From contig CAWJCX010000043.1 in NCBI GenBank assembly GCA_963841395.1, forward strand, positions 228,171 to 292,170: 64,000 bases of DNA. Reading direction: 5' to 3'. The notes beneath the pieces are model-generated. The model saw only the letters and a program-made list of their open reading frames with translations, was not told where the DNA came from and did not search any database. Made by a program: the position numbers and the translations under genes. Position 1 is the stretch's first letter, and every line of letters begins with the position of its first letter. This document shows, piece after piece, positions 271 to 36,112 of the stretch. Source of the DNA: an uncultured Actinomycetota bacterium (GTDB lineage Bacteria > Actinomycetota > Actinomycetes > Mycobacteriales > Pseudonocardiaceae).

Positions 271-477
271 ATGGCAGCCGAGCAGGCGTTCCAGGTCGTG
301 GTCAACGACGAGGAGCAGTACTCGATCTGGCCCGCCGAGCAGGAGCCGCCCGCGGGCTGGCGCCCGGCCGGGTTCACCGGCGCCCGCGAGGACTGCGTGG
401 CCCACGTCGACCGGGTGTGGACCGACATGCGGCCGAAGAGCCTGCGGACCGCGATGGACGAGGCCGGCTCGCGGTGA
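271..477 (+). CDS. mbtH: MbtH-like NRPS accessory protein
   Basis: [32 protein letters not shown] signature; GGAGG upstream of ATG 271. Confidence 0.95.
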
Positions 478-13784: not shown

Positions 13785-13818
13785 TGAGAGATTTCCGATT
13801 CGCCAGAAGGAGTGCCCG

Positions 13819-14832: not shown

Positions 14833-14836
14833 GCCC

Positions 14837-17381: not shown

Positions 17382-17781
17382 GCCGGCCGAAGAAGAGTAC
17401 GTAGCCGTCGTTGTCGGTGAGCTCGAAGCCGCGCAGGCCGTCGTGGGTGTCGGTGAGTGGCGTGCTGAAGGTGACGCCCCGGCCGTGGAACTCGGCCGCC
17501 AGCGCGTCGGGGTCGGGCACGTGGACGTAGGCGTCCCAGCGGGCGTCGGGGTGGCGGGACGCGTTCGGTAGGGCGGCGACGTCCTCGGCGACGACCTTGA
17601 GCATCAACTGCACGCCGTCCCGGGCGATGATCGCGAAGAACGGGTCCGCTTCCGGCGCCTGGTGAGTCACCTCGAAGCCGAGGCGGTCGCGGTAGAACGT
17701 CAGTGCCCGCTGGAGGTCACCGACGACGAAGAAGGGCGAGATCGCGCCCAGGGTGGCGCGGACCGGGGTCTCGATGCGCAT
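17371..17781 (-). CDS. VOC / glyoxalase-bleomycin resistance family protein
   Basis: VGDLQRALTFYRDRLGF ... GLRGFELTDNDGYVLFFG; GGAGG RBS. Confidence 0.85.
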   Translation of the reverse strand: MRIETPVRATLGAISPFFVVGDLQRALTFYRDRLGFEVTHQAPEADPFFAIIARDGVQLMLKVVAEDVAALPNASRHPDARWDAYVHVPDPDALAAEFHGRGVTFSTPLTDTHDGLRGFELTDNDGYVLFFGRPTA

Positions 17782-17951
17782 TGCGCCTCCACTCGTCAAA
17801 GGGCCGGTCCAGGGTAGCCGGGAACGGCGAGATCCTGCTGGTTTACCGAATCCCTACCGGTGGTTGGGCGTTCCCGAACCCGGTCTTCCTACGGTTCGGC
17901 AGCAGTGGAGTGGTAGTCGACTCCGCGTCCAGCACACCGAAAGGGCACACC

Positions 17952-18077
17952 ATGCCGGACATCGAGGACAGGGACCCCAAGGAAAGCCCGGAAGAGGTCG
18001 AGGTCGTCGCGCACACCGACGAAGAGGACGAAGAGCTGAACGCCGGCTGCACGTTCAACTCGTCGGCGCAACTGTAA
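17952..18077 (+). CDS. Putative RiPP precursor peptide (41 aa)
   Basis: MPDIEDRDPKESPEEVEVVAHTDEEDEELNAGCTFNSSAQL; GAAAGGG RBS; GC-rich third positions; directly upstream of the radical SAM gene. Confidence 0.8.
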   Translation: MPDIEDRDPKESPEEVEVVAHTDEEDEELNAGCTFNSSAQL

Positions 18078-18209: not shown

Positions 18210-19397
18210 GTGACTCTGGAACACATCGGACAGCGCAGCGGGGCACGGGTCCTCGCCGGAAAGAACAACTACTGGTTCCTCGGCCCCGGCGGCATCGCCC
18301 GGCTCAAGTCCTCGCAGGTGACCCCGGAGGGGGCACTGCTCCCGCGCGCGGACCAGAAGCTGCGCGAATCCGGGCTCTACGACCCGCCGCCGGGTCACCT
18401 GTACTCGTTGACCGTGCTGACCAGTACCGACTGCAACCTGGGGTGCGGGTACTGCTTCCAGAACATCGGGGCGGACACGACAGGCGGCAACCGCCCGCCG
18501 CGGATCAAGCACGCGCGGCTCACCTCCGAGGACATCACCACGATCCTCGACTTCGCCGGCCGCCAGATGGCCGCGGTCGACCTGGACAAGCTCAGCATCC
18601 TGCTGTTCGGCGGCGAGCCGTTGCTCAACCCCCGCGGCGCCATCGAACTGCTCACCCGCGCGGCCGACTACGGGCTGGCGTCGGCGTGGATGATCTCCAA
18701 CACCACCCTGCTCACCCCGGAGCTGGCCAAGAACCTGTGGGACGCCAGGCTTCGCTACATCCAGGTCACCTTCGACGGCGACAAGCCCGAGCACGACCAG
18801 ATCCGGGTCCGGCGCTCCAACGGCGGGACCTTCGACACGATCGTGCGCAACATGGTCCGCGCCTCCGACGCCTCCCCGATGTCCTGGGCGCTGCGGGTCA
18901 ACGTCTCCCACCGCAACCACCGGGGGATCGACAATCTGCTCGACCGGCTCGCGGGCGCGCTGGACACCTCGCGCTGCACCATCTCCTTCGACCAGATCAG
19001 GGACATGGGCGTCGGCTACGCCAACGACCTCGAGCACACCCGCAACCTGTCGGCCTCCTTCGCGCACTGGCAGCAGCAGGCGCTCGAGCTCGGCTTCCGC
19101 GTGCCCCGGCCGGCCGCCAGCACCCCGTGCCGCACCTGCGGCCACGGCGACGGCCGCTACGGCGCGGTCGTGAACGCCGACGGCACCCTGTCCAGTTGCT
19201 GGGAGACCGCCGGGAGACCCGGCTGGGAGGTCGGCACGGCCGCCACCGGCTACCTGTCTCCCGAGGTCACTCGCGACCGCTGGATCTCCTGCGGGGACAT
19301 GTACGACCCCGCACCGGACGACGTGGAGGTGGCGGCGTTCCACGACGCCGTGGACGCCGCGCTGCTGGACTACCTCGCCGATACCGGACGTCTGTAG
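18210..19397 (+). CDS. Radical SAM protein with SPASM/twitch-like C-terminus
   Basis: CNLGCGYC, LFGGEPLL, C-terminal CRTC..NADGTLSSCWE..WISC; GGAGG before GTG 18210. Confidence 0.92.
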   Translation: MTLEHIGQRSGARVLAGKNNYWFLGPGGIARLKSSQVTPEGALLPRADQKLRESGLYDPPPGHLYSLTVLTSTDCNLGCGYCFQNIGADTTGGNRPPRIKHARLTSEDITTILDFAGRQMAAVDLDKLSILLFGGEPLLNPRGAIELLTRAADYGLASAWMISNTTLLTPELAKNLWDARLRYIQVTFDGDKPEHDQIRVRRSNGGTFDTIVRNMVRASDASPMSWALRVNVSHRNHRGIDNLLDRLAGALDTSRCTISFDQIRDMGVGYANDLEHTRNLSASFAHWQQQALELGFRVPRPAASTPCRTCGHGDGRYGAVVNADGTLSSCWETAGRPGWEVGTAATGYLSPEVTRDRWISCGDMYDPAPDDVEVAAFHDAVDAALLDYLADTGRL

Positions 19398-19399
19398 CC

Positions 19400-21490
19400 G
19401 TGCCACCGCGCCAGTACCCGGCGGCCGACCGCGAGGATCCCGGCGACGATCCGGTGGCCGATCCGTACCGCTGGCTCGAGGACGCCACCACACCCCGGAC
19501 GCTGCGCTGGACCGCCGAGCAGGACGCCCTCTTCCAGGCGGAGCGGGCGTCCTGGCCGGACGCCGACCGGTGGCACGCCCAGCTCGCCGCGCTGAGCGGG
19601 CTGGACCGCACCGGGACGCCGAAGGTCCGCGGCGAGCTGGTCTTCGGCCTGCGGCAGCGAGCCGGGCACGAGCAGCCGGTGCTGGTGGTGCGCGACGGGG
19701 CGGCCGAGCGGGTCCTGCTCGATCCGCGCGCCCTGGACCCGCTCGGGCGCACCACGCTGGAGGCCTGGCAGCCCTCGGTCGCCGGTGACCGGGTGGCCTT
19801 CCAGGTCTCCCGGGACGGCACCGAGGACTCGCTGCTGTACGTGCTCGACGTGGCCACCGGGCAGGTCGTCGACGGGCCGGTCGACCGGATCCGGGGCCGG
19901 ACGGTCGGCTGGCTGCCCGACGGCGAGTCGCTCTTCTACATCCGGTGCCTGCCGCCCGGCCCGGACGGCGGCGGGTCGCGCTACCACCGCCGGGTCTGGC
20001 TGCACAAGATCGGCTCCGCTCCGGACACCGACATCCTGGTGTTCGGCGAGGACCGGCCGAAGGCCCAGTTCTACAGCGTGGCCGTGACCGCGGACGGGCG
20101 CTGGCTGACCGTCACGGCCACCGAGGGCACCGCCCCGGGCACCGACGTCTACCTGGCCGACCTGACCGCGGGCGCACCGGAGCGGCCCGTCCTGCGCCCG
20201 GTCCAGGAAGCCGCGACCTTCCGCACCCGCGCGCACCTCGCGGCCGGCACCGGCCCGGCCGACGTGATGTGGCTGCGCACCGACCGCGACGCCCCGTACG
20301 GCCACGTCGTCGCCTGCACGCCGGCGAACCCCGGCGTGGACACCTGGCGGCCGGTGGTCGCCGAGCGCCCGGGCGTGGTGCTCACCGACTTCGCCGTGCT
20401 CACCGGACCCGGGCTCGCCCGGCCGCTCGGGCTGGCGTCCTGGCTGCGGCACTCGGTCTCCGAGATCACCGTGCACGACCTCACCGACGGCCGCCGCGTC
20501 ACCACGGTGCCGCTGCCCGGGGCGGGCACGGTGGGCGACCTCTCGGTGCGGCCCGAGGGCGGGCACGAGGCCTGGTTCGCCTACACCGACTTCGCCACCC
20601 CGCCGCAGGTCATGCACTTCGACGCCCGCACCGGGCTGACCAGCGTGCTGGCGCGGGCCGGCGACCGCCCCGGGGGCTACGGACTCACCGCCCACCAGGA
20701 GACGTTCATCTCCCGGGACGGCACCGCGGTGCGGATGTTCGTCGTCTCCGCCGCGGGCGTCCCGGACCGCCCGCGGCCGACGATCCTCTACGGCTACGGC
20801 GGTTTCGGCACCCCGGTCTCCGCGAAGTTCTCCGCCGAGGCCGTCGCCTGGGTGCGCGCCGGCGGGGTCTTCGCCGCCGCGTGCGTGCGCGGGGGTGGCG
20901 ACGAGGGGGAGCGGTGGCACGCCGCCGGGCGGGGCGAGCACAAGCAGAACAGCATCGACGACTTCGTCGCGGCCGCCGAGCACCTGGTCGCGACCAGGTG
21001 GACCGAGCCCGGCCGGCTCGGGATCATGAGCATCTCCAACGGCGGGCTGCTGGTCGGCGCCGCGCTCACCCAGCGCCCGGACCTCTACGCCGCGGCCGTG
21101 AGCATGTCCCCGCTGCTGGACATGCTCCGCTTCGAGCTGTCCGGGCTGGGCCCGAGCTGGGTGCCCGAGTACGGCAGCGCCGCGGACCCCGGCCAGCGAC
21201 GCACCCTGCTGTCCTACTCGCCCTACCATTGCGTGCGCCCGGGCACGGCGTACCCGGCGGTGCTGCTCACCGCCGCGGACGGCGACACGCGCGTCGATCC
21301 CTTGCACGCCCGCAAGATGTGCGCCGCCCTGCAGCACGCCACCGCCGGGGCGGGGCCGGTGCTGTTCTGGCTGGAACGCGGGGTCGGCCACGGCAACCGG
21401 GGCGCCTCGCGTCGGGTGGACCTCTATGCGACGGCCCTGGCCTTCCTCGGCGACCAGCTCGGCCTGCCCGCGCGCGAGGACGGGCCGTGA
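19400..21490 (+). CDS. Prolyl oligopeptidase (S9A) family protein
   Basis: DPYRWLED, LYGYGGF, VRGGGDEG..WH, SNGGLL, DTRVDP, GHG. Confidence 0.92.
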   Translation: MPPRQYPAADREDPGDDPVADPYRWLEDATTPRTLRWTAEQDALFQAERASWPDADRWHAQLAALSGLDRTGTPKVRGELVFGLRQRAGHEQPVLVVRDGAAERVLLDPRALDPLGRTTLEAWQPSVAGDRVAFQVSRDGTEDSLLYVLDVATGQVVDGPVDRIRGRTVGWLPDGESLFYIRCLPPGPDGGGSRYHRRVWLHKIGSAPDTDILVFGEDRPKAQFYSVAVTADGRWLTVTATEGTAPGTDVYLADLTAGAPERPVLRPVQEAATFRTRAHLAAGTGPADVMWLRTDRDAPYGHVVACTPANPGVDTWRPVVAERPGVVLTDFAVLTGPGLARPLGLASWLRHSVSEITVHDLTDGRRVTTVPLPGAGTVGDLSVRPEGGHEAWFAYTDFATPPQVMHFDARTGLTSVLARAGDRPGGYGLTAHQETFISRDGTAVRMFVVSAAGVPDRPRPTILYGYGGFGTPVSAKFSAEAVAWVRAGGVFAAACVRGGGDEGERWHAAGRGEHKQNSIDDFVAAAEHLVATRWTEPGRLGIMSISNGGLLVGAALTQRPDLYAAAVSMSPLLDMLRFELSGLGPSWVPEYGSAADPGQRRTLLSYSPYHCVRPGTAYPAVLLTAADGDTRVDPLHARKMCAALQHATAGAGPVLFWLERGVGHGNRGASRRVDLYATALAFLGDQLGLPAREDGP

Positions 21491-22674
21491 ACGTCCTGCT
21501 GTGCCCGCTCAGCGACGGCGGGTACCTCTACCCGGCGATCGCGGCCGGACGCGAGCTGGCCCGCCGCGGTCACGCGGTCAGCGCCGTCGGCCGGGCTCGG
21601 GCCGCCACCGTGCTCGCCGAGGCCGGCCTGCCGTTCGCGGCGCTGGCGGACTTCGGCGAACGGGCGGGGTTCTCGGCGGCGCGCTGGGCCCTCACCGGCA
21701 TGGAGCAGTACCGGGTCGTCCTGCGCGCGGCCACCCAGGCGCGGGCCGACCTGATCGTCACCTCGGTGCTCTGCCCCGGCGCCCTGGTCGCCGCCGAGGT
21801 GCTGGACCTCCCGGTCGTCGTGGTCGGCTTCGCGGCCCACCTGTGGGACTACCGGGCGGGCGGGGACGGCGACGTCCTGCGCGAGGCCCGGCGCAGGCGG
21901 ACCCTCGACACCGCCGGGCACCACGCCGCCCTGCGGGAGCGGGTCGGCCTGGCGCCGCGGCGGCACGCGGACCCGCAGAGCCCGCTGCTGGGTGCCGCGC
22001 TGCTGCTGCGCGGCGCGCCCGCCCTCGAGCACCCGGGCGCGACGCTGCCCGCCCGGGTACGGCACGTGGGGCCGTTGAGCTGGGAGCCGGCGGCCGACCC
22101 CGGCGAGCTCGACGAGGTCCGGGATGTCCTGGACCGCAACGGCAAACCGGTCGTCTACGTCCACCTGGGACGGTTCTTCGAGGGCACCAACCAGTGGCCG
22201 ATGCTGAACGCGGCCTTCACCGGCGGCTCGTTCCAGGCCGTCGTCGAGCGGGGCCGGTCGCGGGATCCGCGGCCCGCCCCGGGCGCGGACGTCGTGCTCG
22301 TGCACAAGCCGTGGATGGGCCCGCTGCTCGACCGCGCGGGTCTGGTGCTGACCAGTGGCACGTCGGCACCCGTGCTGGCCGCGCTGGTCCGCGGCCGCCC
22401 GCTCGGGGTGTCGCCCAACGGGGCCGAGCAGCCGCTGCTCGCGGCGGCGTGCGAGCGGGCCGGGGTGGCCGTGCGGGTGCCGCCCGTGGTCACCGGCGAC
22501 CCGGCCGCCCTGCTCCGCTCCGCCTGGCACGACCCCCGCCTGCGGGCGCGCGCCGGCGGCCTCGGTCGCGACCTGGCCACCGCCGGCGGCGCCGGGCGCG
22601 CCGCCGACGTGATCGAGCAGGTGGCGTCCGGTCGGATCGAGACCGCGTCCGCGTTCGGGAAAGGACGACGATGA
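21487..22674 (+). CDS. GT1/MGT-type glycosyltransferase
   Basis: N-terminal PLSDGGYLYP..AGRELARRGH, RHVGPL, KPVVYVHLG, LVLTSGT, PNGAEQ. Confidence 0.85.
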   Translation: MNVLLCPLSDGGYLYPAIAAGRELARRGHAVSAVGRARAATVLAEAGLPFAALADFGERAGFSAARWALTGMEQYRVVLRAATQARADLIVTSVLCPGALVAAEVLDLPVVVVGFAAHLWDYRAGGDGDVLREARRRRTLDTAGHHAALRERVGLAPRRHADPQSPLLGAALLLRGAPALEHPGATLPARVRHVGPLSWEPAADPGELDEVRDVLDRNGKPVVYVHLGRFFEGTNQWPMLNAAFTGGSFQAVVERGRSRDPRPAPGADVVLVHKPWMGPLLDRAGLVLTSGTSAPVLAALVRGRPLGVSPNGAEQPLLAAACERAGVAVRVPPVVTGDPAALLRSAWHDPRLRARAGGLGRDLATAGGAGRAADVIEQVASGRIETASAFGKGRR

Positions 22675-23600
22675 GCGGCACCACCGACGCCGGAACGCTC
22701 GCCCCGGCCGGCGACCTGTCCACCTGCGATGTCCTCAGTGGACTGTCCGCCGGGGCAGTGGGCTGGGTCGGCCGCAACCTGCCGTTCTTCGACCCGTTCT
22801 CGCCTGCCTCACCGCTGCCGGCGGCCAGGCGGGCCAAGGCGGTGCTGGAGCTGGCGGTGTTCTGCCACCGCTGGGCGAAGCTGCGACCCACGAGCGACCT
22901 GTTCGACCGGGCCGGCGCGCTGCTGCGGGGGATCTGGCGGCGCCCGGAGTTCCCGGTGCTGCTGGACACCCACGGCGGGCCATACGCCGACTCGCAGCGG
23001 CTGGTGTACCTCGCGCTCGCCCCCGACGACCACCGCGACGCCGCCCTGGCCCGGCTGAGCGACGGCTACCTGTCCCCACCGGGCAAGTCGGCGTACCTGC
23101 GGCTGGAGACCCGTTACTACGCGGACAAGGCGAACCTCGCGCACGGCATGGAGTCCTACCGGGAGCTCGCGGCGGGGAGTCTGCTCGCCCGGCCTCCCAC
23201 GCCGCCGGTGTCCACGAGCGACGCGTACACGATGACCCACACCGCCTTCTACCTCAGCGACTACGGCCACCTGCCCGTCGACCTGCCCGACGACACCCGC
23301 GAGCGGGCGCTCCGGGCCGTCGCCGCGCTGGTCGTCTCCTCGGCCCGCGAGGACCTGTGGGACCTGACCGGCGAGCTGCTCATCACGCTCGCCTGCCTCG
23401 GCGGCGACGTCACCGGCACGCCCGCGGGGCAGGCCGGCCTCCGCTGCCTGGCCGGCGCCCAGCTGCCCGGCGGGGCGATCCCGGGACGGTCGGCCGCCAG
23501 CGGGGTGTCGCCCGAGCTGCCGCCGGGCCAGTTCTTCCGCCGGGCCTACCACACCACGCTCGTCGCGGCCCTGGTCGGCATCGTCGCCGGGACGGGCTGA
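22671..23600 (+). CDS. DUF6895-like helical protein, paralog A
   Basis: KAVLELA, YTMTHTAFYLSDYG, WDLTGELL, FRRAYHTTLVA; family label recalled, not searched. Confidence 0.7.
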   Translation: MSGTTDAGTLAPAGDLSTCDVLSGLSAGAVGWVGRNLPFFDPFSPASPLPAARRAKAVLELAVFCHRWAKLRPTSDLFDRAGALLRGIWRRPEFPVLLDTHGGPYADSQRLVYLALAPDDHRDAALARLSDGYLSPPGKSAYLRLETRYYADKANLAHGMESYRELAAGSLLARPPTPPVSTSDAYTMTHTAFYLSDYGHLPVDLPDDTRERALRAVAALVVSSAREDLWDLTGELLITLACLGGDVTGTPAGQAGLRCLAGAQLPGGAIPGRSAASGVSPELPPGQFFRRAYHTTLVAALVGIVAGTG

Positions 23601-24955
23601 TGTCGATCCGGCAGCGGCTGGTGCACGGGGCTTTGATCAGCCCCGACTACGCCCGGCTCTGGGCCGGGCAGGCCGTGTCCGTCCTGGGCGACATGGTCTT
23701 CCTCACCACGCTGGTGCTGTGGGTGGGCACCGTGCTGGCCGAGGGGCAGCCGTGGGCGCCGGCGGCGGTGAGCGGCATCGTGGTCGCGACCGGCGCGGCG
23801 ATCCTGGTCGGCCCGATCGCCGGCACGCTGGTCGACCGGTGGGACAGCCGGCGCACCGCGCTCGGCGCCGACGTCGTCCGTGGTGTCCTGGCCGGGCTGC
23901 TGACCGCGGTGGTGACGTTCGTCCCGGTCGACGCCCTGCCAGTCGCGGTCTGGCTCGGGCTGATCTACCTGATCGTCTTCGGGCTCTACCTGAACAGCCA
24001 GTTCTTCCAGCCGGCCCGGTTCACCCTGATCCGGGACATCGTGTCCGGCGAGGTCGACCGCGCCCGGGCGGCGGGCATCGCGCAGGCGACCGGCCAGACC
24101 GTGATGATTGTCGGCCCACCGCTCGCCGCACCACTGATGTTCGGCGCCGGGGTGCAGTGGGCACTGCTGTTCAACGCGCTGTCCTACGGCGTCTCCTTCG
24201 TCGCGATCCGCTCGGTGCGGGCCAGAGCACCCGAGCCCGCACCGGAACCGCGGGGCGAAGCTGCGTCGGGCGTGCGCGCGGAGTTCGTGGCGGGCCTGAA
24301 GTTCTTCCGCGGCAACAGAACCCTGGTCACCCTGCTGTCCATCGCGGTGATCGGCCAGCTCGGGATCGCCCCGCTGACCACGCTGAACGTGTTCTTCCTG
24401 ACCGACAACCTGCACGCCTCGACCCAGCTGTTCGGCTACCTCGGCATGGCGCTCGGCGTGGGCGGGGTCCTCGGCGCGCTGTGCACCGGCCGGATGGTGC
24501 GCCTGCTCGGCGCGCGCACGGTCACCTGGGCCGGCATCGTCCTGCTCGGCGTCCTGCTGATCGCCTACTCCCGCCAGACCGCCTTCGGCGCCGGGCTGGT
24601 CCTGCTGTTCCTGCTCGCGATCCCGATGACCATGGCGAACACCGCCGTGGCGCCGCTGTTGCTCGGCGCCGCCCCACGGGAGTACGTCGGCCGGACGACC
24701 GCGGTGTTCAACCCGGTCAACCAGCTCACCGGCATGCTGGGCACCCTGGTGGCGGGCTGGCTGCTCAGCTCGCTGCTGCGGGGCTTCAGCGTCTCGCTGC
24801 TCGGCCTGCGGCTCGGGCCGGTCGACCTGATCCTCATGGTGGCCGGTGGGTTGATCGTCCTTTCCGGACTGTACGCACGGGTCGCGCTGCGGCAGGCCGC
24901 GGCCGCGGAGACGGCGGCCCAGGTCGAGAAGCCCGTGCCCGACACGGCGTCCTGA
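23600..24955 (+). CDS. MFS transporter (likely product export)
   Basis: YARLWAGQAVS, AGTLVDRWDSRR, many TM segments; TGATG coupling to the upstream gene. Confidence 0.9.
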   Translation: MSIRQRLVHGALISPDYARLWAGQAVSVLGDMVFLTTLVLWVGTVLAEGQPWAPAAVSGIVVATGAAILVGPIAGTLVDRWDSRRTALGADVVRGVLAGLLTAVVTFVPVDALPVAVWLGLIYLIVFGLYLNSQFFQPARFTLIRDIVSGEVDRARAAGIAQATGQTVMIVGPPLAAPLMFGAGVQWALLFNALSYGVSFVAIRSVRARAPEPAPEPRGEAASGVRAEFVAGLKFFRGNRTLVTLLSIAVIGQLGIAPLTTLNVFFLTDNLHASTQLFGYLGMALGVGGVLGALCTGRMVRLLGARTVTWAGIVLLGVLLIAYSRQTAFGAGLVLLFLLAIPMTMANTAVAPLLLGAAPREYVGRTTAVFNPVNQLTGMLGTLVAGWLLSSLLRGFSVSLLGLRLGPVDLILMVAGGLIVLSGLYARVALRQAAAAETAAQVEKPVPDTAS

Positions 24956-24960
24956 CCGCG

Positions 24961-26029
24961 TCAGCGCGGGGTGAGGAAGCCCAGCAGGTCCACCGGCGGC
25001 CCGGCGGGAAGGGCGTTCCGGTGCAGCTCGGCGAGCATCGCCGCGACCCCGGCCGTGACCGCGTCCGTGCCGGCCGCCCGCTCCGCCCACCGCCAGTCGC
25101 CGTCCGGGTTCACCTCGAGGAACACCGGTGTACCGGCCCGGACGAGGAAGTCGAACGCCCCGTAGCGCAGCGACATCGCGGCGGCGAGCACCCGGGTGGC
25201 GTCGACGACCGCCGCGGGCGGCGGGCACACCCGGACCCCGACCCGCTCCGGCGCGAGCCACGGGTCGGCGGGGGAGGACTTGTCCACCGCGAACCCGTGC
25301 ACCCGTCCGTCCAAAAAGTAGACCCGCAGCTCGACGTCGTGCTCGACGTACTCCTGGACGACCACCGGCGCCCCGGCGGGGGAGACCGCCGGCAGGTCCC
25401 GTCGCGCCACGACCGCGGGGAACCGGCCGGTCAGCAGGCCGGGCGTGGCCTCGGTGAAGTGGCGGTGGACGGCCTTGACCACCAGCCGCCGGCAGCCGAG
25501 GACCTCGCCCGCTCCCGCCAGGTCGGTGGTGACGACCGTGCGCGGCACGGCCACCCCGTACTGCCCGCGCGGTGCGCAGCTGGGCGAGCAGCCCGCGCGG
25601 CGCCGGTGCGAGGTCGACGACCGCGGTCGCGGCCAGCGCGGCGGCCGCCGCCTGCCACGACTCGCGCAGGAACAGGTCGGCGTCGGGATCGCCGGTCCCC
25701 TCGACCGCCAGGCCGGAGAAGTGCCTGGTCCAGCTCACCGTCGGCGCCACCCAGCCGGCCCCCGCGCGCACGGCGCCGGAGTCGGCGTCGATCAGCAGGC
25801 CGTCGAGCGCGTCGGCGTCGAGGCGGACCACCGGGATCCCCACCCGGCCGAGCAGCGCCCGCACGCCGTCGACGTCCTCGTCGCAGGTGCGGCTGAGCAC
25901 CAGCACCGCCGGCACGGGCCGGTCGCGGGTACCGGCGGACCCGGCCGGTGCCGCGGTGCGCGTGGTGCGGGGCCGGACGTCGACGACCCGGCCGGGGAAG
26001 CGGAAGCCGCCGCCCGGTGGCCCGGTCAC
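24961..26029 (-). CDS. RimK/MvdC-MvdD-like ATP-grasp ligase (one frameshift near 25565)
   Basis: N-part VLVLSRTCD..VVRLDAD in one frame; VPRTVVT, VVKAV, VQEYV, ELRVY, YGAFDF, FLEVNPDGDWRW in another; one extra base joins them. Confidence 0.8.
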
Positions 26030-26694
26030 TCCGCCCGGCCGCGATCGGCGGCGCTGTCGGCCAGCAGCTCGTCCGCCATCAGCTCGTCGGCCATCAGCAG
26101 GAGCTTGGTCACGGTGGCCCGGACCGGCTCGGTCGCCGACGGCAGGCGGGCGGCGACCCGGTGCAGCAGCGGCTGGCCGGCCAGATTCTCGCCCGGCCGG
26201 TCCGCGCGCTCCCGCTCCAGCGCGCGCAGGCGCACCATCAGTGCCAGGACCGCCGCCGTCTCGGTGGCCAGCAGCCCGAGCGCGTCGAGGTCGTCGAGGT
26301 CGTTGCGTGGCCGGCTGTCCCGGTCCAGCACCTCGAGCACGCCGATGCAGTCGCCGTTCCGGAACAGCGGCGCGGCCATGATGCTCTGCGGCACGTAGCC
26401 GGTGGACTCGGCGGCGTCGCGGGCGAACTGCGGGCTGGCCGACACGTCGTCGATGAGCAGCGGCTGTCCACACGCGACGGTCCAGCCCGCGATCCCGGTG
26501 TCCATCGGGAAGCTCGTGCCGAGCAGCGAGTCCTCGCCCTCGCCCGCCACGGCCTCGAACACCAGCTCGCCGGTCTCCTGGTTCAGCAGGAACACCGAGG
26601 CGGCCGCCGCGCCGTAGACACCGCGGGCCACCTCCACGATCGACTGGAGCAGGTGGCGCTGGGCCAGTTCGGAGGAGTCGGTTCGCGCCATCAT
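26026..26694 (-). CDS. GAF domain protein
   Basis: AAASVFLL..ELVFEAVAG..GIAGW..SIMAAPL..IGVLEVLDR; ATGA overlap with the S8 gene. Confidence 0.85.
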   Translation of the reverse strand: MMARTDSSELAQRHLLQSIVEVARGVYGAAAASVFLLNQETGELVFEAVAGEGEDSLLGTSFPMDTGIAGWTVACGQPLLIDDVSASPQFARDAAESTGYVPQSIMAAPLFRNGDCIGVLEVLDRDSRPRNDLDDLDALGLLATETAAVLALMVRLRALERERADRPGENLAGQPLLHRVAARLPSATEPVRATVTKLLLMADELMADELLADSAADRGRAE

Positions 26695-27572
26695 GAACCT
26701 CCCGGTGCGGCGATGACGTTCTCGGCGGTCAGGTACAGCACGGACTTGAGCTGGAACGGCGTGAGCATGGGGTGCTTGCTGAGGATCAGCGCGCAGATCC
26801 CGGCGATGTGCGGGGTCGCCAGGCTGTTCCCGGTGGTGAGGATCTCCCGCCCGCCGCTCCACGCCACCCGCACCCGCACGCCGCGGGCGTAGAACTCCAC
26901 CGGTGGGGCCGGGTTGTAGTAGAAGGTCATCGGGTCGGGGTCGTCGTGGCTGGCCACCGAGATCAGCGACGTGAACGGCCACGGATAGCTCTGCACCGGC
27001 ATGTTGTGCGCCGAGGCGACGATCACGCAGCGGCGGAAGTAGGCGCGGTCGGTGAGCTCCCGCAGGGTGTCGCGGAACTTCTCCTTGGTCGTCGACAGGC
27101 TCATGTTGATCACGTCGAAGCCCTCGTCGACCGCCCACTCGAGCCCGGCCAGCAACGCCGCGCCGGTGCCGTGCTTTCCGTTGCCCAGCACGCGGACCGA
27201 GGTGAGCGAGACCTTCGGGGCGAGCCGGCGGATCACGCTCGCGCACGCCGTGCCGTGACCGGCCAGGTCGGTGGGCTCCACCGGCACCACGGCCATCCCG
27301 TCGTCACCGTCGACCACGTCCATGGCCTGTTCCACCCCACCCACCAGCGGGTGCGAGGCGTCCACGCCACTGTCCAGCACGCAGGCCCGGACACCGTCAC
27401 CGTCCGCGTCCCCCCACGCCCAGTCCCGGGTGACGGGGCCGAGCGGGCTGACGTCGAAGTGCTCGCGGGGCAGCTGGGTGGCGGGCATCCCCCAGGCCGG
27501 CACACCGGGGAAGTGACCGCGCGGCGGGCGCCGCCACGGCGGTGGCTCGATCGTCGGACGCGGGTCAGCCAT
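26691..27572 (-). CDS. Cytoplasmic S8 (subtilisin-like) serine peptidase
   Basis: VLDSG, GHGTACA and GNSLATP triad; no signal peptide. Confidence 0.9.
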   Translation of the reverse strand: MADPRPTIEPPPWRRPPRGHFPGVPAWGMPATQLPREHFDVSPLGPVTRDWAWGDADGDGVRACVLDSGVDASHPLVGGVEQAMDVVDGDDGMAVVPVEPTDLAGHGTACASVIRRLAPKVSLTSVRVLGNGKHGTGAALLAGLEWAVDEGFDVINMSLSTTKEKFRDTLRELTDRAYFRRCVIVASAHNMPVQSYPWPFTSLISVASHDDPDPMTFYYNPAPPVEFYARGVRVRVAWSGGREILTTGNSLATPHIAGICALILSKHPMLTPFQLKSVLYLTAENVIAAPGGS

Positions 27573-30500
27573 CGCGCGCCTCCGTTCCGGCGCCGGCCGC
27601 GAGCCACGCGCGGGTCCGTTCGGCGAAGAGCACGGCGCCCTTGGCCTCGAAGTCCCGCAGCGCGGCCGAGCCCGCGCGCTCCGCGTCCCCCGCCCGCCCG
27701 GCCGCGCGGAGCACGACCGCCAGGTCGAAGGTCGTCGCCCCGGCCAGGCGCGGGTCGTCGGTCCCGTCGCCGAGCGCCCGGGCGGCGGTCGCGGCGTCGA
27801 TCGCCGCGGGGTGCCGTCCCGTGGCCGAGGCGATCCGGCCGCGCAGCGCGGTCGCGGCTATCCGCGCCCGCGTGCTGCTGACCTCCCGGCCGGCGCCGGC
27901 CCGGTCCAGCGCCTCGGCGGCGTCGTCGAGCCGGCCCTGCTCGAAGAGCGACCTGGCGATGAGCACCTCCACGTTCTGGGTGTCCGGGGCGTCCGCGCCG
28001 TTGCGCAGGATCTCCAGCGCGCGGCGGTAGCGGCCCTCAGCCCGGTCGTGCCGCCCGGCCAGCGCCTCCAGGTCGCCGCCCACCTTCAACGCGGCGGCCA
28101 TCGGCAGGTCGAGGTGGATCTCGTCGACGGACTCCTCCAGCATCGCGAGCCTCGTCCGCGCGGCCGGGAGGTCGCCGGCCAGCGCGAGCAGCGTCGTCCA
28201 GGTCACCAGCACCGGCAGCAGCAGCATCCGGTTCGCGGCGAACTGGTCGGCCAGCGACTCGCACAGCGCCAGGCCGGCCTCGACCGGGGTCGGCGTCCAC
28301 TGCGCCAGCTCGCAGATCGCGCTCAGCAGCCAGTCCGCCTCGTGGCCGTCCGCCATGGCGCGGGCGCGGTCCAGCGCGAGCCGCAGCTCCGCGTCCGCCG
28401 CGGCGGTCCGCTCCTCGACGAGGTGCAGGTGGGCCTGGAGGCTGTGGAACCGGCACCAGCTCAGGTCGTCGCCAGGGTGGCGCTCGAGGTCCGCCCGGAT
28501 CGCGGCGGCCTCAGCGGCCACCCGGACCGGCGGCACCAGGCCGAGCCGCAGCGAGACGAGGCAGCGCTGGATCGCGCACACGGTGCGGTTGCGCCGGTCG
28601 TCCGGCAGCGCGGCCTCGGCGTGGGCCAGCGCGGCCAGGCACCGCGGCGCGTCCCGCAGCCACAGCCCCGCGTCGCAGACGTGCAGCGCGAGCGTGGTGT
28701 GCCGGGCGTCGCCGGACGCGACCAGCTCCCGGGCCCGCTCCAGCAGCTGGACCGCGGCCGGCAGGTCCTTGCGGTCCAGGGCGCGCATGCCCTCGGCGGT
28801 CAGCGCGTCGGCCGCCGCGGACGCCAGGCCGGGCAGCGTCGCGTCACCCGGCCGCAGGTCCTTGCTCAGCGCCCAGGCCTGCTCCACGTGGTAGGCGACG
28901 GCCATCCCGTCCCCGCTCTCGCCGTACCAGCGGGCCACGAACTCGTGCCACCGCTGCCGGCGGGTCTTCGGGGTGAACTCGTAGGCCGTCTCGCGCAGCA
29001 GCGGCTGGGCGAACCGGATCGTCCCGGAGCGACCGCGCGCCAGCACGCGGCGGCGGACCAGCATGGCGACCAGGTCGGCCGCCGCCGGCTCGCTGATCCC
29101 GGCCTCCGCCGCCATCGCGTGCAGTACCTCGCCGGTGAAGTCGCGCCCGATGATCGCCGCCAGCTCCACCACGGTGCGCTCCTGGCCGGGGAGCTGGTCC
29201 AGCCGGGCGCCGAGCAGCGCGTGGATCGTGGGCGGGGTCCGCACGTCCGGGTCGGCCTCGGTGACGACGTCCATGATCAGCTCGGCGAACAGCGGGTTCC
29301 CGTCGCACTGCGCCGCCACGCGGTCGAGGGTGTCGGTGTACTCGTGCGCGTACACCTCCTCCCGCAGGGCCAGGTGGGCCACCAGCTCGACGCTCTGCGC
29401 CCGCGTCATCGGCACCAGCTCGAGGGTCATCGCGGAGGTCTTGCCGCCGCCCCAGGTCGGCCTGGTCTCCAGCAGCTCGCCGCGGGCCACGCACAGCATC
29501 AGCACCGGGACGTCGGTCAGCCGGCTCGCCACGTCGTCGACGAGGTCGAGCAGCGTCTCCTCCGCCCAGTGCAGGTCCTCCCACACCATGACCACCGGGC
29601 GGCCCTGCCCGAGCGTGTCGAGCAGCGACCGGGCCGCCCACGCGATGTCGGCGGTGCCGACCGTCGCCGTGGCGGCGCCGGTCACCGTCGCCAGCGTGCG
29701 GGCGGCCAGCCCGTCGGCGCCCAGCAGCCCGGCCAGGGCGGGCCAGCCGCCGGGAAAGGCGGCGAGGATGTCGGCCAGCGGCTTGTAGGTGATGCCCCGC
29801 CCGTAGGGGGAGCAGCGGCCGGCCAGCACCAGCACCTCGCCGTCGGGCAGCGTGCCGAGGAACTCCTGGACCAGCCGCGACTTGCCGATCCCCGGTACGC
29901 CGAGCACGGTGACCAGGCACAGCTGCCGGTCGCGGATCATCCGCCGGTAGCTCTGCCGCAGGTCCAGCAGCTCGTCCTCGCGGCCGATGAACGGCGCGGG
30001 CGCGGTCCGCTCGTCGTCGACCGCGACGGTCTCGGCGACCCGGAACGCCGGAACGGGACTCGCCTTTCCCTTCAGCCGCAACGGCGCGACCGGCTCGATG
30101 CCGACCTGGTGCCGGATCATCGAAGCGGTGTCGGCGTCGAGGAGGATGCCGCCCGGCGGTGCGGCGTTCTGCAGCCGGCTCGCGGTGTTGCCCGCGTCGC
30201 CGACGACCCGGAAGTCGCCGTCGGCCGTGGTCAGCACGACCACGTCACCGGTGCACACCCCGCAGCGGGCGTCGAGCGTGATCCCGTAGCGGGCGGTGAA
30301 CTCGGCGCTGAGCCGGCGCACCGCGGCCAGTGCCGCCACGGCCGCGCGCACCGCCCGGACCGCGTCGTCCTCGTGCGCGACGAGGGCGCCGAACGCGGCC
30401 ATCACCGCGTCGCCGATGAACTTCTCCACCACCCCGCCGTGGTCGGTGATGGAGGCCGAGCAGGCCGCGAAGTACTGGTCCATGACCTCCCGCAGCGGCT

Positions 30501-30672
30501 CCGGGTCCAACCGCTCGGCGAGCTGGGTGGACCCCACCACGTCCACGAACAGGACCGACACCTTCTTGCGCGCCTCCCGCGGCGCCGGGAGGGCCTGCAG
30601 CGCGGCGCCGCAGTTGACGCAGAACCGGTCGGTCTCCGCGGTGCGGGCCGCGCACGCGGGGCACGTCAGCAC
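27565..30672 (-). CDS. Zn-ribbon - class III adenylate/guanylate cyclase - AAA/STAND ATPase - TPR-like protein
   Basis: CPAC..FCVNCG, LFVDVVGST, KFIGDAVM, GDAGNTASRLQ, GVPGIGKS, WEDLHWA, GNPLF; GGAGG before GTG 30672. Confidence 0.9.
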   Translation of the reverse strand: MLTCPACAARTAETDRFCVNCGAALQALPAPREARKKVSVLFVDVVGSTQLAERLDPEPLREVMDQYFAACSASITDHGGVVEKFIGDAVMAAFGALVAHEDDAVRAVRAAVAALAAVRRLSAEFTARYGITLDARCGVCTGDVVVLTTADGDFRVVGDAGNTASRLQNAAPPGGILLDADTASMIRHQVGIEPVAPLRLKGKASPVPAFRVAETVAVDDERTAPAPFIGREDELLDLRQSYRRMIRDRQLCLVTVLGVPGIGKSRLVQEFLGTLPDGEVLVLAGRCSPYGRGITYKPLADILAAFPGGWPALAGLLGADGLAARTLATVTGAATATVGTADIAWAARSLLDTLGQGRPVVMVWEDLHWAEETLLDLVDDVASRLTDVPVLMLCVARGELLETRPTWGGGKTSAMTLELVPMTRAQSVELVAHLALREEVYAHEYTDTLDRVAAQCDGNPLFAELIMDVVTEADPDVRTPPTIHALLGARLDQLPGQERTVVELAAIIGRDFTGEVLHAMAAEAGISEPAAADLVAMLVRRRVLARGRSGTIRFAQPLLRETAYEFTPKTRRQRWHEFVARWYGESGDGMAVAYHVEQAWALSKDLRPGDATLPGLASAAADALTAEGMRALDRKDLPAAVQLLERARELVASGDARHTTLALHVCDAGLWLRDAPRCLAALAHAEAALPDDRRNRTVCAIQRCLVSLRLGLVPPVRVAAEAAAIRADLERHPGDDLSWCRFHSLQAHLHLVEERTAAADAELRLALDRARAMADGHEADWLLSAICELAQWTPTPVEAGLALCESLADQFAANRMLLLPVLVTWTTLLALAGDLPAARTRLAMLEESVDEIHLDLPMAAALKVGGDLEALAGRHDRAEGRYRRALEILRNGADAPDTQNVEVLIARSLFEQGRLDDAAEALDRAGAGREVSSTRARIAATALRGRIASATGRHPAAIDAATAARALGDGTDDPRLAGATTFDLAVVLRAAGRAGDAERAGSAALRDFEAKGAVLFAERTRAWLAAGAGTEARDG

Positions 30673-30853
30673 TGTGACCTCCGCGTGTGCCCGTTCTCCG
30701 GTTGTGTCCCCAGAATCGATTTCCCGGGTTCTGAAATGTTCAACGGGCGGTTCGGCAACGGTTAAACGCCAGGACGCACGGCATCGACACGAGGCGGCGG
30801 GGAGATCACGCTTGTTCCCGAGCCGTCCCCCGCGACCCGTTGGGAGGCCATCG

Positions 30854-31978
30854 ATGCCGGAGGCCATCGCCTACCGCACCGGCACCTACCGTTCGGTCGA
30901 CCCGGCACGCACCTGGGAGCGGGTGGAGCCGATGCTCGGCCGCTTCGGCATCACCAGGGTCGCCGACCTCACCCGGCTCGACGACATCGGGCTGCCGGTC
31001 CACGCGGCCTACCGGCCGACCAGCCTCACCTACGCGGTCAGCATGGGCACCGGCGTGACCGTGGCGCAGTCCAGGGTCAGCGCGGTGATGGAGAGCATCG
31101 AGATCTGGCACGCCGAGAACCTCCGGCTGCCGGTCGCCGCCCGCGCTCCGGCGGCCGCCCTCGACCTCGGCTACGACGTGCGGGGCCTGAACCTGGCGCC
31201 GCGGTCGCCGCTGACCTCCCACGTCGTGCTGGACTGGGTGCGCGGGCACGGCCTGCTCACCGGCCGCGAGATGCTGGCCCCCGTCGACGCCATCCGGCTC
31301 GACGGCACCGCACCCCGCGACTGGGCCACCGTGCTCTTCCGGGCCACCAGCGAGGGCATGGCCACCGGCAACACCGAGGCCGAAGCCGTGCTGCACGGCC
31401 TTTTCGAGCTGATCGAGCGGGCGAGCCTGGCCGGCCACCGGGACCGCGAACGGCGCTACGTCGACCCGGCGACCTGCCGGGACCCGGTGACCACCCGTAT
31501 CCACGACGCGCTGGTCGCGGCGGACTGCACCGTGACCGTCCGCGACGTCACCGGGTCCACCGGGCTGCCCTCCTACGTGGCCACCGTCTGGTCGGTCGAC
31601 GTGCCGATGCGCTGCGCCGGGTTCGGCTGCCACGTCCAGGGGGAGATCGCGCTCGGCCGGGCGATGAGCGAAGCGGTCCTGACCCGGCTGGCGGCGATCT
31701 CCGGCGCCCGCGACGACATCGACGGCGTGGTGTACCGCGAGATGGCCGAGCCGGTCGTGCCCGCCGACCGGGCCGATCTGCGCGAGCGCGACGGCTGGGC
31801 CGGCTGGATCGACGACGGCGACCTGCGCTCGGTGATCCGCCACTGCGCGTCGCTCGTCGCGTCGGCCACCGGTTGCGAGCCGTTCATGGTCCGGCTGGGT
31901 CACGACGACATCGGCATCCCCGCGGTCAAGGTGTTCACCCCGGGCCTGCGGGCCCTCGGCCGGACGGGACCGTCATGA
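30854..31978 (+). CDS. ycaO: YcaO-like protein (TfuA-associated type)
   Basis: GITRVADLTRLDDIG, SAVMESIE..HAE, ELIER, ISGARDD, VKVFTPGL. Confidence 0.88.
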   Translation: MPEAIAYRTGTYRSVDPARTWERVEPMLGRFGITRVADLTRLDDIGLPVHAAYRPTSLTYAVSMGTGVTVAQSRVSAVMESIEIWHAENLRLPVAARAPAAALDLGYDVRGLNLAPRSPLTSHVVLDWVRGHGLLTGREMLAPVDAIRLDGTAPRDWATVLFRATSEGMATGNTEAEAVLHGLFELIERASLAGHRDRERRYVDPATCRDPVTTRIHDALVAADCTVTVRDVTGSTGLPSYVATVWSVDVPMRCAGFGCHVQGEIALGRAMSEAVLTRLAAISGARDDIDGVVYREMAEPVVPADRADLRERDGWAGWIDDGDLRSVIRHCASLVASATGCEPFMVRLGHDDIGIPAVKVFTPGLRALGRTGPS

Positions 31979-33291
31979 GCGCCTGCACCGTGTTCGTCGG
32001 GCCGACGCTGCCGCGCACCCGGGTCGCCGAGCTCCTGCCCGAGGCGCGGATCCGGCCACCGGTGCGCCACGGCGACCTGCTGCGGCTCGACGCCGGCCGC
32101 GGTGACACCGTCCTGATCATCGACGGGCTGTTCCTCCAGACCGCCTCGGTCCGCCACCGCGAGATCCTCTACCTGCTCGACCGCGGCGTCACGGTGGCCG
32201 GCAGCTCCAGCATGGGGGCGTTGCGCGCGGCGGAGCTGTGGCAGTACGGCATGCGCGGGTACGGGGAGGTGTTCCGGCTCTACCGCGACGGGGAGATCGA
32301 CGGCGACGACGAGGTGGCCATCGTGCACGGCACCGCCGAGGACGGCTACCGCGCCTACAGCGACCCGGCGGTCAGCATCCGCGTCGCGCTGCGGGACGCG
32401 ACCGCCGCCGGAGTGCTCGACCCTGGCGAGGCCGAGCAGCTGCTCGCCGACGTCATCGCCACGCCGTTCCGGTCGCGCAGCTTCCGGGCCCTGGAGCGGC
32501 GCATGCCGGCGGAGACCGCGCGACGGTTCCTGGCCTGGCGCTCGGCGCACGACACCGACGTGAAGGCGGCCGACGCCCGGGTGTTGCTGGCCGCGACCGC
32601 CGCCGGCCTTCTCCCGGCAGACCCTCGGGACGAGCCGGCCCACAACGTGCACACCTGGGTCTTCGACACCTGGGAGCACCAGTACCACGGCGGTTCCGGT
32701 CCCGATGTCGACGAGGATGTCGACGAGTGGGTGTCCGACGCCGACGCCGACACCGCGATCCGCCTGTTCCACCCGGGCTTCCGGGACAGCTACCGCCACC
32801 ACGTCCTGTCCAGGATCGCCGGGCTGTCCCCGGACCACCCCGCGGTCGTCGACCGCGCGCTCGCGGTCGCCCGGGCCAGGGGACTGCACACCGGGGCGCC
32901 CGGTGGCTGGCTCACCGCACGCGACCTCGCCGCGCCGCCGGAAGAGGCGCTGGCCCGCCTGCTCGTGCGGGCCTTCGGCCGCGCGCACCACTGGCCCCCG
33001 ACCAGGTGGGACCTGCCGCCGTCGCTGCGGACCGAGCGGGCAATGGCCGCCGGTCGCGCCCTCGTCCTAGCGGCGCGTCGCCACGCGGGACCGCCGGCCG
33101 ACGCCGCCGAGGAGACCGACCGCGCGCTCGCCGCCGCCTGGGGCTGCGACCCTGGCGAGCTGGAGGCGCAGGCCTGGGACCGCGGGATCCCCGACCTGGC
33201 CACGTTGCGCCGGATCGCCGCGCAGTTCGTCCGCTACGTGCGGGCCGAGGAGACCATCACCGCCATGAGGGCGGTCATGAGCGTCGTCTGA
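31975..33291 (+). CDS. tfuA: TfuA-like protein with C-terminal extension
   Basis: VFVGPTL, PPVRHGDL, IIDGLF, HREIL, SSMGALRAAEL, DDEVA, DVKAADA; ATGA overlap with ycaO. Confidence 0.88.
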   Translation: MSACTVFVGPTLPRTRVAELLPEARIRPPVRHGDLLRLDAGRGDTVLIIDGLFLQTASVRHREILYLLDRGVTVAGSSSMGALRAAELWQYGMRGYGEVFRLYRDGEIDGDDEVAIVHGTAEDGYRAYSDPAVSIRVALRDATAAGVLDPGEAEQLLADVIATPFRSRSFRALERRMPAETARRFLAWRSAHDTDVKAADARVLLAATAAGLLPADPRDEPAHNVHTWVFDTWEHQYHGGSGPDVDEDVDEWVSDADADTAIRLFHPGFRDSYRHHVLSRIAGLSPDHPAVVDRALAVARARGLHTGAPGGWLTARDLAAPPEEALARLLVRAFGRAHHWPPTRWDLPPSLRTERAMAAGRALVLAARRHAGPPADAAEETDRALAAAWGCDPGELEAQAWDRGIPDLATLRRIAAQFVRYVRAEETITAMRAVMSVV

Positions 33292-34127
33292 TACGCCTTG
33301 CGGAAGCGCTCGGTCGACGTCGCCGACGGGCCGGGCAGCAGCCGGCTCGCCGCACCCGGGATCGCCCCGGACGCGTCCTGGACCTCGGCGAGCATCCGGA
33401 TGGCCGCGGCCCCCGACGGCGTGGCGGCCGGGTCCAGGCCGAGGCAGAACTGCGCGAGCAGGAACTTGGCCACGTTGTCCCACTCGTCGAGCCGGACGTA
33501 GTGCGCGGTCAGCTCCACCACCAGCCGCCGCACCCGATCGACCTCGGCGTCGTCCAGGTCCGGGGCCCGCAGGCCGAAGTCGCTGAGGTAGAAGACGGTG
33601 TGCGCGATCGTGCACGCGTCGGCGTCGGTCACCGGCAGCGCCGTGCTCCGCCCGGCGAGCAGGCTCGCCGCGTACAGCTCGCGGTAGTCCCCGGCACAGT
33701 GCGCGGTCCCGGCCAGCTCCGCGTAGTAGGCGATCTCCAGGCGCAGGTAGGGCGACCCGGCGGCGGGGGAGAGGTAGCCGTCCTCGGTGAGCCCGGCGAG
33801 CACCGCGCGGCTCCGCTCGGCTGGCGCCGGCGCCAGGCCGCAGTACATGAGGCTGAACTGCCGGGCGTAGCGCCGGTCGGTGCCGATGACCGCAGGCAGG
33901 TCGGGCCGCGGCCACACGCGCCGGACGAGCGCGCCGACCTCGGCGGCGCCCGGGTCGTCCGGCCGGACCCGGTGCCAGCAGCGCAACAGCCCCGCCAGCT
34001 GGATGAACGCCTTCGCCCGGGGTACCGCGGGCAGCTCGGCCCGCCCCGCCGGGGAGTCGAGGTAACCGGCGTGGTTGCGCACCCAGCCGCAGCTGCCCGC
34101 GCGGAGCCGCTGGAGGTCAGTGGACAC
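33234..34127 (-). CDS. DUF6895-like helical protein, paralog B
   Basis: KAFIQLA, SPYLRLEIAYY, CTIAHTVFYLSDFG, WDNVAKFLL, FRKAYQTTL; clearly homologous to 22671-23600. Confidence 0.7.
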   Translation of the reverse strand: MSTDLQRLRAGSCGWVRNHAGYLDSPAGRAELPAVPRAKAFIQLAGLLRCWHRVRPDDPGAAEVGALVRRVWPRPDLPAVIGTDRRYARQFSLMYCGLAPAPAERSRAVLAGLTEDGYLSPAAGSPYLRLEIAYYAELAGTAHCAGDYRELYAASLLAGRSTALPVTDADACTIAHTVFYLSDFGLRAPDLDDAEVDRVRRLVVELTAHYVRLDEWDNVAKFLLAQFCLGLDPAATPSGAAAIRMLAEVQDASGAIPGAASRLLPGPSATSTERFRKAYQTTLMTALMAVMVSSART

Positions 34128-35923: not shown

Positions 35924-36112
35924 CTAGGCGAGTTTGACGTCGACGTGCCCCTCGACCTCGGGATCGGACACAGCGTCCAGCCGCCGCTTCACCGAGTTGA
36001 GCACCGCAACCTCGTCCGCGGTGAGCCGCGCGAGCACCCCGCGCTGTTCCGAGGAGAGCAGATCGACCGGATTCCCCGCCGCACGCAGCGCGGAAAGCGC
36101 GTCGAAATTCAT
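35924..36112 (-). CDS. Small RiPP-associated protein resembling the 'aroma-sacti cluster domain' (62 aa)
   Basis: MNFDALSALRAAGNPVDLLS.EQR.VL..L..DEV.VLNSVK.RLD....EVEGH; AAGGAG RBS; family label recalled. Confidence 0.75.
   Translation of the reverse strand: MNFDALSALRAAGNPVDLLSSEQRGVLARLTADEVAVLNSVKRRLDAVSDPEVEGHVDVKLA

Follow-up and report, generated by a model that had tools for sequence, protein, structure and literature searches.

Precursor 1, a 41-residue peptide encoded at positions 17952 to 18077 of the 64,000-nucleotide stretch of DNA analysed here (the window), is a RiPP precursor of a widespread, uncharacterised peptide family of soil actinobacteria. We put at about 60% the probability that the radical SAM (rSAM) enzyme encoded 3' of it joins Cys33 to Asn36 in a four-residue thioether, that an S8 subtilase cuts after the EVVAH motif of the leader, and that the product is tailored and exported. 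We infer the Cys33-Asn36 link from a rule governing the residue three positions after the cysteine (Cys+3), from the controls to this rule, from the ranking of CteB among the solved relatives of the enzyme and from the precedent of SycC. The following features make up the precursor gene:

17939..17945, plus strand: Shine-Dalgarno-like GAAAGGG, 6 nt 5' of the precursor 1 ATG
17952..18077, plus strand: precursor peptide 1, the ORF studied here, 41 aa
17997..18014, plus strand: V-E-V-V-A-H motif, ending at His21 of precursor 1
18015..18047, plus strand: acidic spacer T22-G32 of precursor 1, 11 residues
18048..18074, plus strand: core C33-L41, with Cys33 as predicted donor, Asn36 as predicted acceptor and Ser38 as candidate glycosylation site

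The translation of 17952-18077 on the plus strand (MPDIEDRDPKESPEEVEVVAHTDEEDEELNAGCTFNSSAQL*, 41 codons) contains a single Cys, a Phe at Cys+2, no acidic residue in the core and no Pro before it; its monoisotopic mass, unmodified, comes to 4573.99 (2171.88 for T22-L41). The earlier note had described a 41-aa frame with its own ribosome binding site, GC-rich third positions and a single Cys, hidden inside a longer frame, and all of this is borne out. G+C by codon position is 0.68/0.34/0.88 in the precursor and flat (0.63/0.67/0.69) in the in-frame extension 17703-17951 on its 5' side, which conceals the gene within a 124-aa ORF. This long frame is not conserved, since a stop lies 3-5 codons 5' of the precursor Met in three of the nine relatives checked (L002, L004 and L007); at the position equivalent to GAAAGGG, the precursors of relatives have GGAGG or AGGAG. 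Contigs of four soil-metagenome runs from three studies differ within precursor 1 by seven single bases, six of them synonymous third positions and the seventh R7K, and by one frame-keeping change of Ser37-Ser38 to Gly-Ala, a variant also recorded as the 41-aa protein P0124. The third-position G+C, the ribosome binding site and the mostly synonymous strain variation confirm that the ORF is real. No sigma-70-like promoter was found for precursor 1, and the spacer between it and the rSAM gene folds no better than its shuffles (z -0.13).

Precursor 1 heads a RiPP cluster in which genes for the rSAM, a prolyl oligopeptidase, a glycosyltransferase, a DUF6895 protein and an MFS exporter follow on the same strand in that order. 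The ATP-grasp, GAF, S8 and cyclase/AAA/TPR genes converge on these genes, and YcaO, TfuA, a second DUF6895 gene and a SARP regulator lie beyond them, together with a second precursor gene (35924-36112) missing from the earlier note:

18210..19397, plus strand: rSAM maturase, 395 aa, with an N-terminal three-strand/one-helix element, CxxxCxxC and four C-terminal Cys
19394..21490, plus strand: prolyl oligopeptidase (POP, S9), triad motifs present
21487..22674, plus strand: macrolide/YjiC-like glycosyltransferase (GT), cleanly missing in strain X3
22671..23600, plus strand: DUF6895 protein a, alpha/alpha toroid
23597..24955, plus strand: MFS exporter
24961..25915, minus strand: ATP-grasp ligase, interrupted in this assembly by a one-base frameshift near 25563
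26026..26694, minus strand: GAF-domain protein
26691..27572, minus strand: S8 subtilase, triad motifs present, no signal peptide by eye, candidate VxAH/VxGH protease
27565..30675, minus strand: Zn-ribbon/cyclase/AAA/TPR regulator, start approximate
30866..31978, plus strand: YcaO, start approximate
31972..33291, plus strand: TfuA
33234..34127, minus strand: DUF6895 protein b
34117..35922, minus strand: SARP-type regulator with BTAD and NB-ARC
35924..36112, minus strand: precursor peptide 2, 62 aa, aroma-sacti domain leader, ending EVEGH-VDVKLA

In a second genome (G792) the cluster is fully syntenic, with the genes from the rSAM to the SARP regulator in the same order at 65-82% identity. The window also holds, at 417-16354, an NRPS-like region that combines condensation, adenylation and carrier domains with a heme-oxygenase-like protein and a stand-alone adenylation domain; the first 10 kb of this region look fragmented. 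At 38551-42985 on the minus strand lies a secreted-looking FG-GAP repeat protein adjoining a SARP/NB-ARC/TPR regulator.

Relatives of the rSAM at E <= 1e-40 form at least 593 protein clusters (7999 candidates scored). Within the phylum, 4 of 401 genomes had a match, and for one related family the figure was 66 of 401 sampled genomes at E <= 1e-60; a metagenome scan mostly returned distant rSAMs, with 9 of 80 loci belonging to the family. Among 89 family loci, 50 with long flanks were used in a scan for precursors, the other 39 being short or duplicate stretches. The earlier note had proposed looking for a conserved peptide upstream of rSAM homologues, and such a peptide exists: the scan found matching peptides in 45 of the 50 loci, and those of the remaining five were found by eye. 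Of the 59 peptides returned, 3 were discarded as non-coding matches and 56 kept, including one in L004 that lies 7.5 kb downstream and may belong to another system. As background, the motif filter gave 22 matches in the organism's own 8.26-Mb genome (0.053 per 20 kb, precursor 1 included) and 4 in 71 rSAM loci outside the family. The rSAM is present in every locus by design, as it served to choose them, and related loci are not independent of each other; no weight is therefore given to p-values. The unit common to the family consists of [ED]-V-x-[AG]-H, an acidic spacer (mode 11 residues, 7-12 in 65 of 72 units), one Cys and a tail of about eight residues, and is repeated two to eight times in many relatives, whose precursors are called genes annotated 'hypothetical protein'. 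Six different precursor genes with variable cores surround a single rSAM in L131. Gln at Cys+3 is accompanied by a JmjC oxygenase in the L142-L148 clade, and a methyltransferase takes the place of this oxygenase in the C-G-x-Y-D-K clade (L150, L152-L159).

The rSAM matches PF04055 with 52 bits (cut-off 29.5). Cys75, Cys79 and Cys82 of the CxxxCxxC motif are invariant in 31 sequences. Invariant, too, are the C-terminal Cys307, Cys310, Cys330 and Cys361, which resemble a twitch arrangement with G-x4-C; the second SPASM cluster motif is missing and there is no Pfam SPASM match. The enzyme stays below every NCBIfam cut-off, including those of TIGR04463, CefB, PapB and SCIFF (best score 115 versus 525 bits; PapB 69 versus 340, SCIFF 38 versus 425), and StsB is not among its best 25 NCBIfam matches. 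Its nearest solved relative is CteB, a thioether former, which leads by profile (E 9e-12) and by fold (rank 1, TM 0.61, 16% identity). The structural model (pLDDT 82.7) has an N-terminal element of three strands and a single helix, short of a full three-helix RRE. Mapped via the CteB alignment, the six catalytic-site residues read F,F,I,T,W,E and share two with CteB (F,F,T,S,H,Q) and one with StsB (Y,T,I,S,K,L), a mixed profile that favours neither C-alpha nor C-beta as the site of attack. A predicted complex of the rSAM with precursor 1 scored 0.56, versus 0.02 for the best control, with contacts agreeing between runs by at least 56% and a partner pLDDT of at least 49; it lends weak support to the pairing. 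Among solved pairs, 116 of 157 reached the mark, as did 2 of 215 mismatched ones; 18 of the solved pairs and both mismatches lay at or below 0.60.

The Cys is invariant in the family and the residue at Cys+3 is restricted, being N in 21, Y in 21, H in 10, F in 8, Q in 8, C in 2, M in 1 and S in 1 of the 72 distinct units. When every Cys is counted, N, Y, H, F or Q stands at Cys+3 in 46 of 52 distinct words and Gly in none of the 52, as compared to 82 of 587 (14%) for the same five residues at other core positions. VxAH peptides of S8 loci without this rSAM, which served as a control, have one of the five at Cys+3 in 3 of 15 cases. The second cysteines in L042, L043 and L134 also follow the rule, which is broken in 6 of the 52 words, with misfits in L045, L048 and L141. 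Of 14 further words, which lie outside the training set and were read by eye, ten follow the rule, those of three loci with no S8 gene in the locus DNA included; one carries Asp, and three (L045, L048) deviate. Three distant relatives whose locus DNA holds no S8 gene (L149, L151 and L160) have short precursors directly before the rSAM, in which VxAH is absent and C-x-x-Y/F/N follows 7-10 residues after IEIF, IEVF or FEVV. From these relatives and the S8-only control peptides it follows that the Cys+3 rule is separable from the leader motif. The suggestion of the earlier note that the Cys suits an rSAM thioether remains the best reading, since the Cys and the restricted residue at Cys+3 follow the rSAM family.

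The same observations bear on a non-thioether chemistry of the rSAM, such as cyclopropanation at a beta-branched Cys+1 or Cys+2, desaturation or epimerisation, with the Cys used otherwise. We consider this quite improbable. A V, I or T occupies Cys+2 in 56 of 72 units, TigE, a non-thioether enzyme, is the second solved match of the rSAM by sequence, and the active-site profile of the rSAM fully matches no thioether enzyme. However, precursor 1 itself carries Phe at Cys+2, the Cys is invariant, Cys+3 is more tightly restricted than Cys+2, and CteB ranks first.

If the rSAM does form the Cys33-Asn36 thioether, the carbon attacked is more likely C-beta than C-alpha. On chemical grounds, N, Y, H and F have in common a CH2 beside an sp2 carbon, which would suit radical attack at C-beta. 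The same ring linked to the alpha carbon, i.e. a four-residue sactionine, appears unlikely to us, albeit with a real chance: the acceptor position is confined to side chains that have an activated CH2, and Gly, the acceptor of StsA and BlaA, never occurs there. In favour of such a link, PMC10288494 describes sactisynthases scattered among ranthisynthase-like sequences and non-hairpin sactionines made by GggB and QmpB, whose profiles are ranthisynthase-like; the rSAM matches also include SkfB, a twitch sactisynthase according to PMC10114670.

The leader motif has a different distribution from the Cys+3 rule. The S8 subtilase of the window has matches in 139 of 401 genomes. At 40 S8 places hand-picked for lacking this rSAM family, motif peptides were found at 30 by motif scan, at 34 by the aroma-sacti profile and at 39 by both combined, with the motif directly followed by a tail of 5-12 residues or by another leader. 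StsA-family precursors carry EVVAH/VVAH too, though the RRE site of StsA is WxxP. Conversely, eight loci of the rSAM family keep the motif with no S8 gene in the locus DNA; one of these genomes (G722) has S8 elsewhere. EVVAH tracks the cytoplasmic S8 module and is not specific to this rSAM. EVVAH as an rSAM recognition sequence only was rejected, because the motif tracks S8 in places without the rSAM and S8-less relatives lack VxAH. The motif is likely a protease site, at which S8 would cut after His or Gln (His21 in precursor 1), in keeping with the cleavage preferences of subtilases. Its x-E-V-V part is likely also a docking strand for the rSAM, because the S8-less relatives keep IEIF, IEVF or FEVV. 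In a further set of loci (L175, L176, L178, L183-L189, L194, L195, L199 and L202), EVEAH precedes an LDLQ leader with cores rich in Cys and Ser: here a different RiPP class carries the same tag in front.

Since the motif is common to many unrelated peptides beside the same module, precursor 1 might serve only as a regulatory substrate of the S8/GAF/cyclase module, with the rSAM leaving the peptide unmodified. We hold this to be extremely improbable, as S8-less relatives keep C-x-x-Y/F/N peptides before the rSAM and the Cys+3 rule is absent from S8 loci that have no such rSAM.

Precursor 2 contains the aroma-sacti domain NF045560 (79.8 bits, cut-off 30), and aroma-sacti peptides occur in 60 of 89 stretches scanned. 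The S8 protease is likely shared by precursors 1 and 2 and would cut precursor 1 at EVVAH. The ATP-grasp ligase belongs with precursor 2, its likely substrate, because a Lys third from the end of the aroma-sacti peptide is found in 16 of 16 loci with ATP-grasp and in none of 44 others; D/E-x-K in precursor 2 was tried as the requirement of the ligase and failed (9 of 16). The extra base near 25563 is missing from the related strains of all four soil-metagenome runs, and the ATP-grasp frame is open over the whole gene in eight of nine homologues, the ninth (L003) being cut by the locus edge. The frameshift is private to this assembly and is either an assembly error or a recent loss.

In some loci, a second radical SAM and a heme-oxygenase-like protein (HDO) accompany aroma-sacti peptides ending in GGALF, GGLFF or GGxxW (L172-L202 and family loci such as L002, L005 and L125-L133); a motif search of the literature found no paper on GGALF-type endings. 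A Trp before the Cys was tried as a correlate of the second rSAM/HDO pair and dropped (7 loci with both, 8 and 3 with one only), the pair going with the GGALF-type peptides. Five loci (L165, L168-L171) each have two divergent aroma-sacti peptides, one ending xKLL and the other an N-rich ...C, adjoining ATP-grasp and a distant rSAM.

Within 8-10 kb, 46 loci contained the other genes as follows: S8 in 35, GAF, the cyclase and SARP in 31 each, GT in 25, POP in 24, DUF6895 in 13, ATP-grasp in 9, and YcaO and TfuA in none. The earlier note had taken the Cys to suit S-glycosylation as well, and Thr/Ser with Asp/Glu to suit ATP-grasp ester links; ATP-grasp and GT genes are both present in the cluster. 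That precursor 1 is a graspetide or carries a glycocin-like sugar on Cys33 now seems very unlikely, even with the ATP-grasp gene intact in related strains. The ligase is found in only nine of the 46 loci and tracks the Lys of precursor 2, the acidic run lies upstream of the core in the spacer, the core itself has no acid, and in ATP-grasp loci the cores of the precursor 1 type have no conserved Asp/Glu after Thr/Ser. Glycocins are defined by a dedicated GT2-type peptide glycosyltransferase and a multi-Cys core; here the GT is macrolide/YjiC-like and occurs in 25 of 46 loci while the Cys is invariant, and the core has one Cys. S-glycosylation of Cys33 is therefore unlikely.

The GT may instead act on Ser38. 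Ser is present at Cys+5 in all 12 GT loci of the clade of the window. L007, whose genome gave no match to the GT, has Ala at Cys+5. On a contig of run X3, POP is followed directly by DUF6895 without the GT, and the precursor has neither Ser; precursor and GT gap are on different contigs of like depth (11.9 and 12.6). The GT-Ser link rests on these two losses, in L007 and X3. L003 keeps Ser at Cys+5 in a locus lacking the GT, and this Ser is missing from most of the 13 GT loci that belong to other clades. Pro before the core was loosely associated with POP (14 loci with both, 8 with POP only, 4 with Pro only, 15 with neither).

Both DUF6895 proteins are members of the Pfam family (213 and 217 bits, cut-off 23.8), with no PDB sequence match and no Foldseek match at E <= 0.001. 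The model (pLDDT 94) is an alpha/alpha toroid common to terpene cyclases (Z 15.0, rmsd 4.0, 250 residues aligned), sugar 2-epimerases (Z 13.3) and lanthipeptide synthetases (Z 11.1). The window falls in a clade of 15 rows (99/99), and DUF6895 coincides with a C-x-x-N-[NS]-S core (13 loci with both, 28 with neither), a coincidence that counts as one clade and not as 13 events. A DUF6895 family member is said to have been described as a lasso-peptide epimerase by Shi et al. in ACS Catal in 2026. By analogy with this paper title, DUF6895 may epimerise residues here. Membership of the same Pfam family is what the cluster shares with the lasso system; here there are two paralogues, and no lasso cyclase was seen in the cluster. 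The YcaO/TfuA pair typical of thioamitides is present in the cluster but not conserved with the precursor family: TfuA is cluster-linked only here and in G792 and in none of 58 other genomes searched (1 of 5 and 0 of 54). The pair may thioamidate either peptide, in the sub-clade of the window only.

When compared to characterised systems, the pathway works like that of the ranthipeptides, of which precursor 1 is a putative member. As in NxxcB/SycC, PapB and CteB, an rSAM, here with a putative auxiliary-cluster domain, is combined with a Cys donor. According to PMC10989515, SycC joins Cys to the C-beta of Asn (Asn19/Cys22, three residues apart as here), in the order N-x-x-C, and is said to act like NxxcB. 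In contrast, the order here is reversed (C-x-x-N), the acceptor varies between N, Y, H, F and Q, and the enzyme has a twitch-like four-Cys tail. Moreover, each unit of the family has one Cys, many precursors being multi-core with units in tandem, and the family is actinobacterial with S8, POP, GT and DUF6895 tailoring. With the StsA/BlaA sactipeptides (NF045559, NF045560), precursor 1 shares the VVAH of StsA precursors and precursor 2 the aroma-sacti domain, whereas precursor 1 lacks this domain, the CxCxC...GxGxG core and Gly acceptors. In cyanobactin-type multi-core precursors, a recognition motif stands before each core and an S8 protease makes the cut. The motif repeat and the cytoplasmic S8 are alike here, and a PatA/PatG model matches weakly (E 3e-4), but there is no heterocyclase, precursor 1 has no follower, and the chemistry is radical. 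What is new is a RiPP family with a radical SAM enzyme and a single Cys, set in a cluster that has two precursors and is predicted to be gated by S8.

No curated family in Pfam or NCBIfam covers precursor 1; searches with it and with the precursors of four relatives gave no match except one chance match to ClpS. We found no characterisation of the precursor/rSAM family in the searchable literature, outside which subscription papers, figure-only supplements and bioRxiv supplements could still contain it; among the papers listed for its motifs, all were unrelated. No core of the family occurs in the accessible supplement material of PMC6511847 (rows listed), PMC8939145, PMC10288494 and PMC12710340; the EVVAH rows of the PMC6511847 supplement are StsA-like peptides, and the six predicted sactipeptide groups of PMC10288494, shown in a figure-only supplement, could include this family. 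A decRiPPter candidate from Streptomyces sp. NTK 937 (supplementary file 2 of PMC7794033) has EVEAH, an acidic spacer and a CGVYDK core, and by sequence falls in the methyltransferase clade of the precursor 1 family, with different core and tailoring. It is an example entry only, and a search of the main text of PMC7794033 gave no passage that deals with it.

Taken together, we propose the following steps, all inferred and in falling order of support. The rSAM would dock on the leader, abstract a hydrogen from residue 36 and couple the sulfur of Cys33 (-2 Da). S8 would then remove residues 1-21, and the prolyl oligopeptidase would trim the acidic spacer. The glycosyltransferase would glycosylate Ser38 or a site close to it, core residues would be epimerised by one or both DUF6895 proteins, and ATP-grasp would work on the Lys of precursor 2, not on Ser/Thr of precursor 1. 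YcaO/TfuA may add a thioamide to either peptide in the sub-clade, and the MFS protein would export the product. A wider reading, which taken as a whole is a long shot, sees in these clusters a shared actinobacterial platform in which S8, wired to a GAF/cyclase/SARP sensor, would free V-x-(A/G)-(H/Q)-tagged peptides, and in which every cluster would encode two peptides, a short one of the aroma-sacti type and a payload that can be exchanged. The payload would carry a reversed-order Cys-Asn C-beta ring, a sugar and D-residues, and ATP-grasp would ligate its C-terminus to the Lys of peptide 2, giving a branched two-gene product.

The co-variation described here bears on the S8 site in VxAH-tagged precursors, on the Lys substrate of this ATP-grasp group and on DUF6895 beyond lasso peptides; the cleavage site of StsA is stated as unknown in the literature. 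If one family couples Cys to Asn, Tyr, His, Phe and Gln at +3, its rSAM would be a promiscuous four-residue macrocyclase. The product is predicted to be a new peptide antibiotic or signal.
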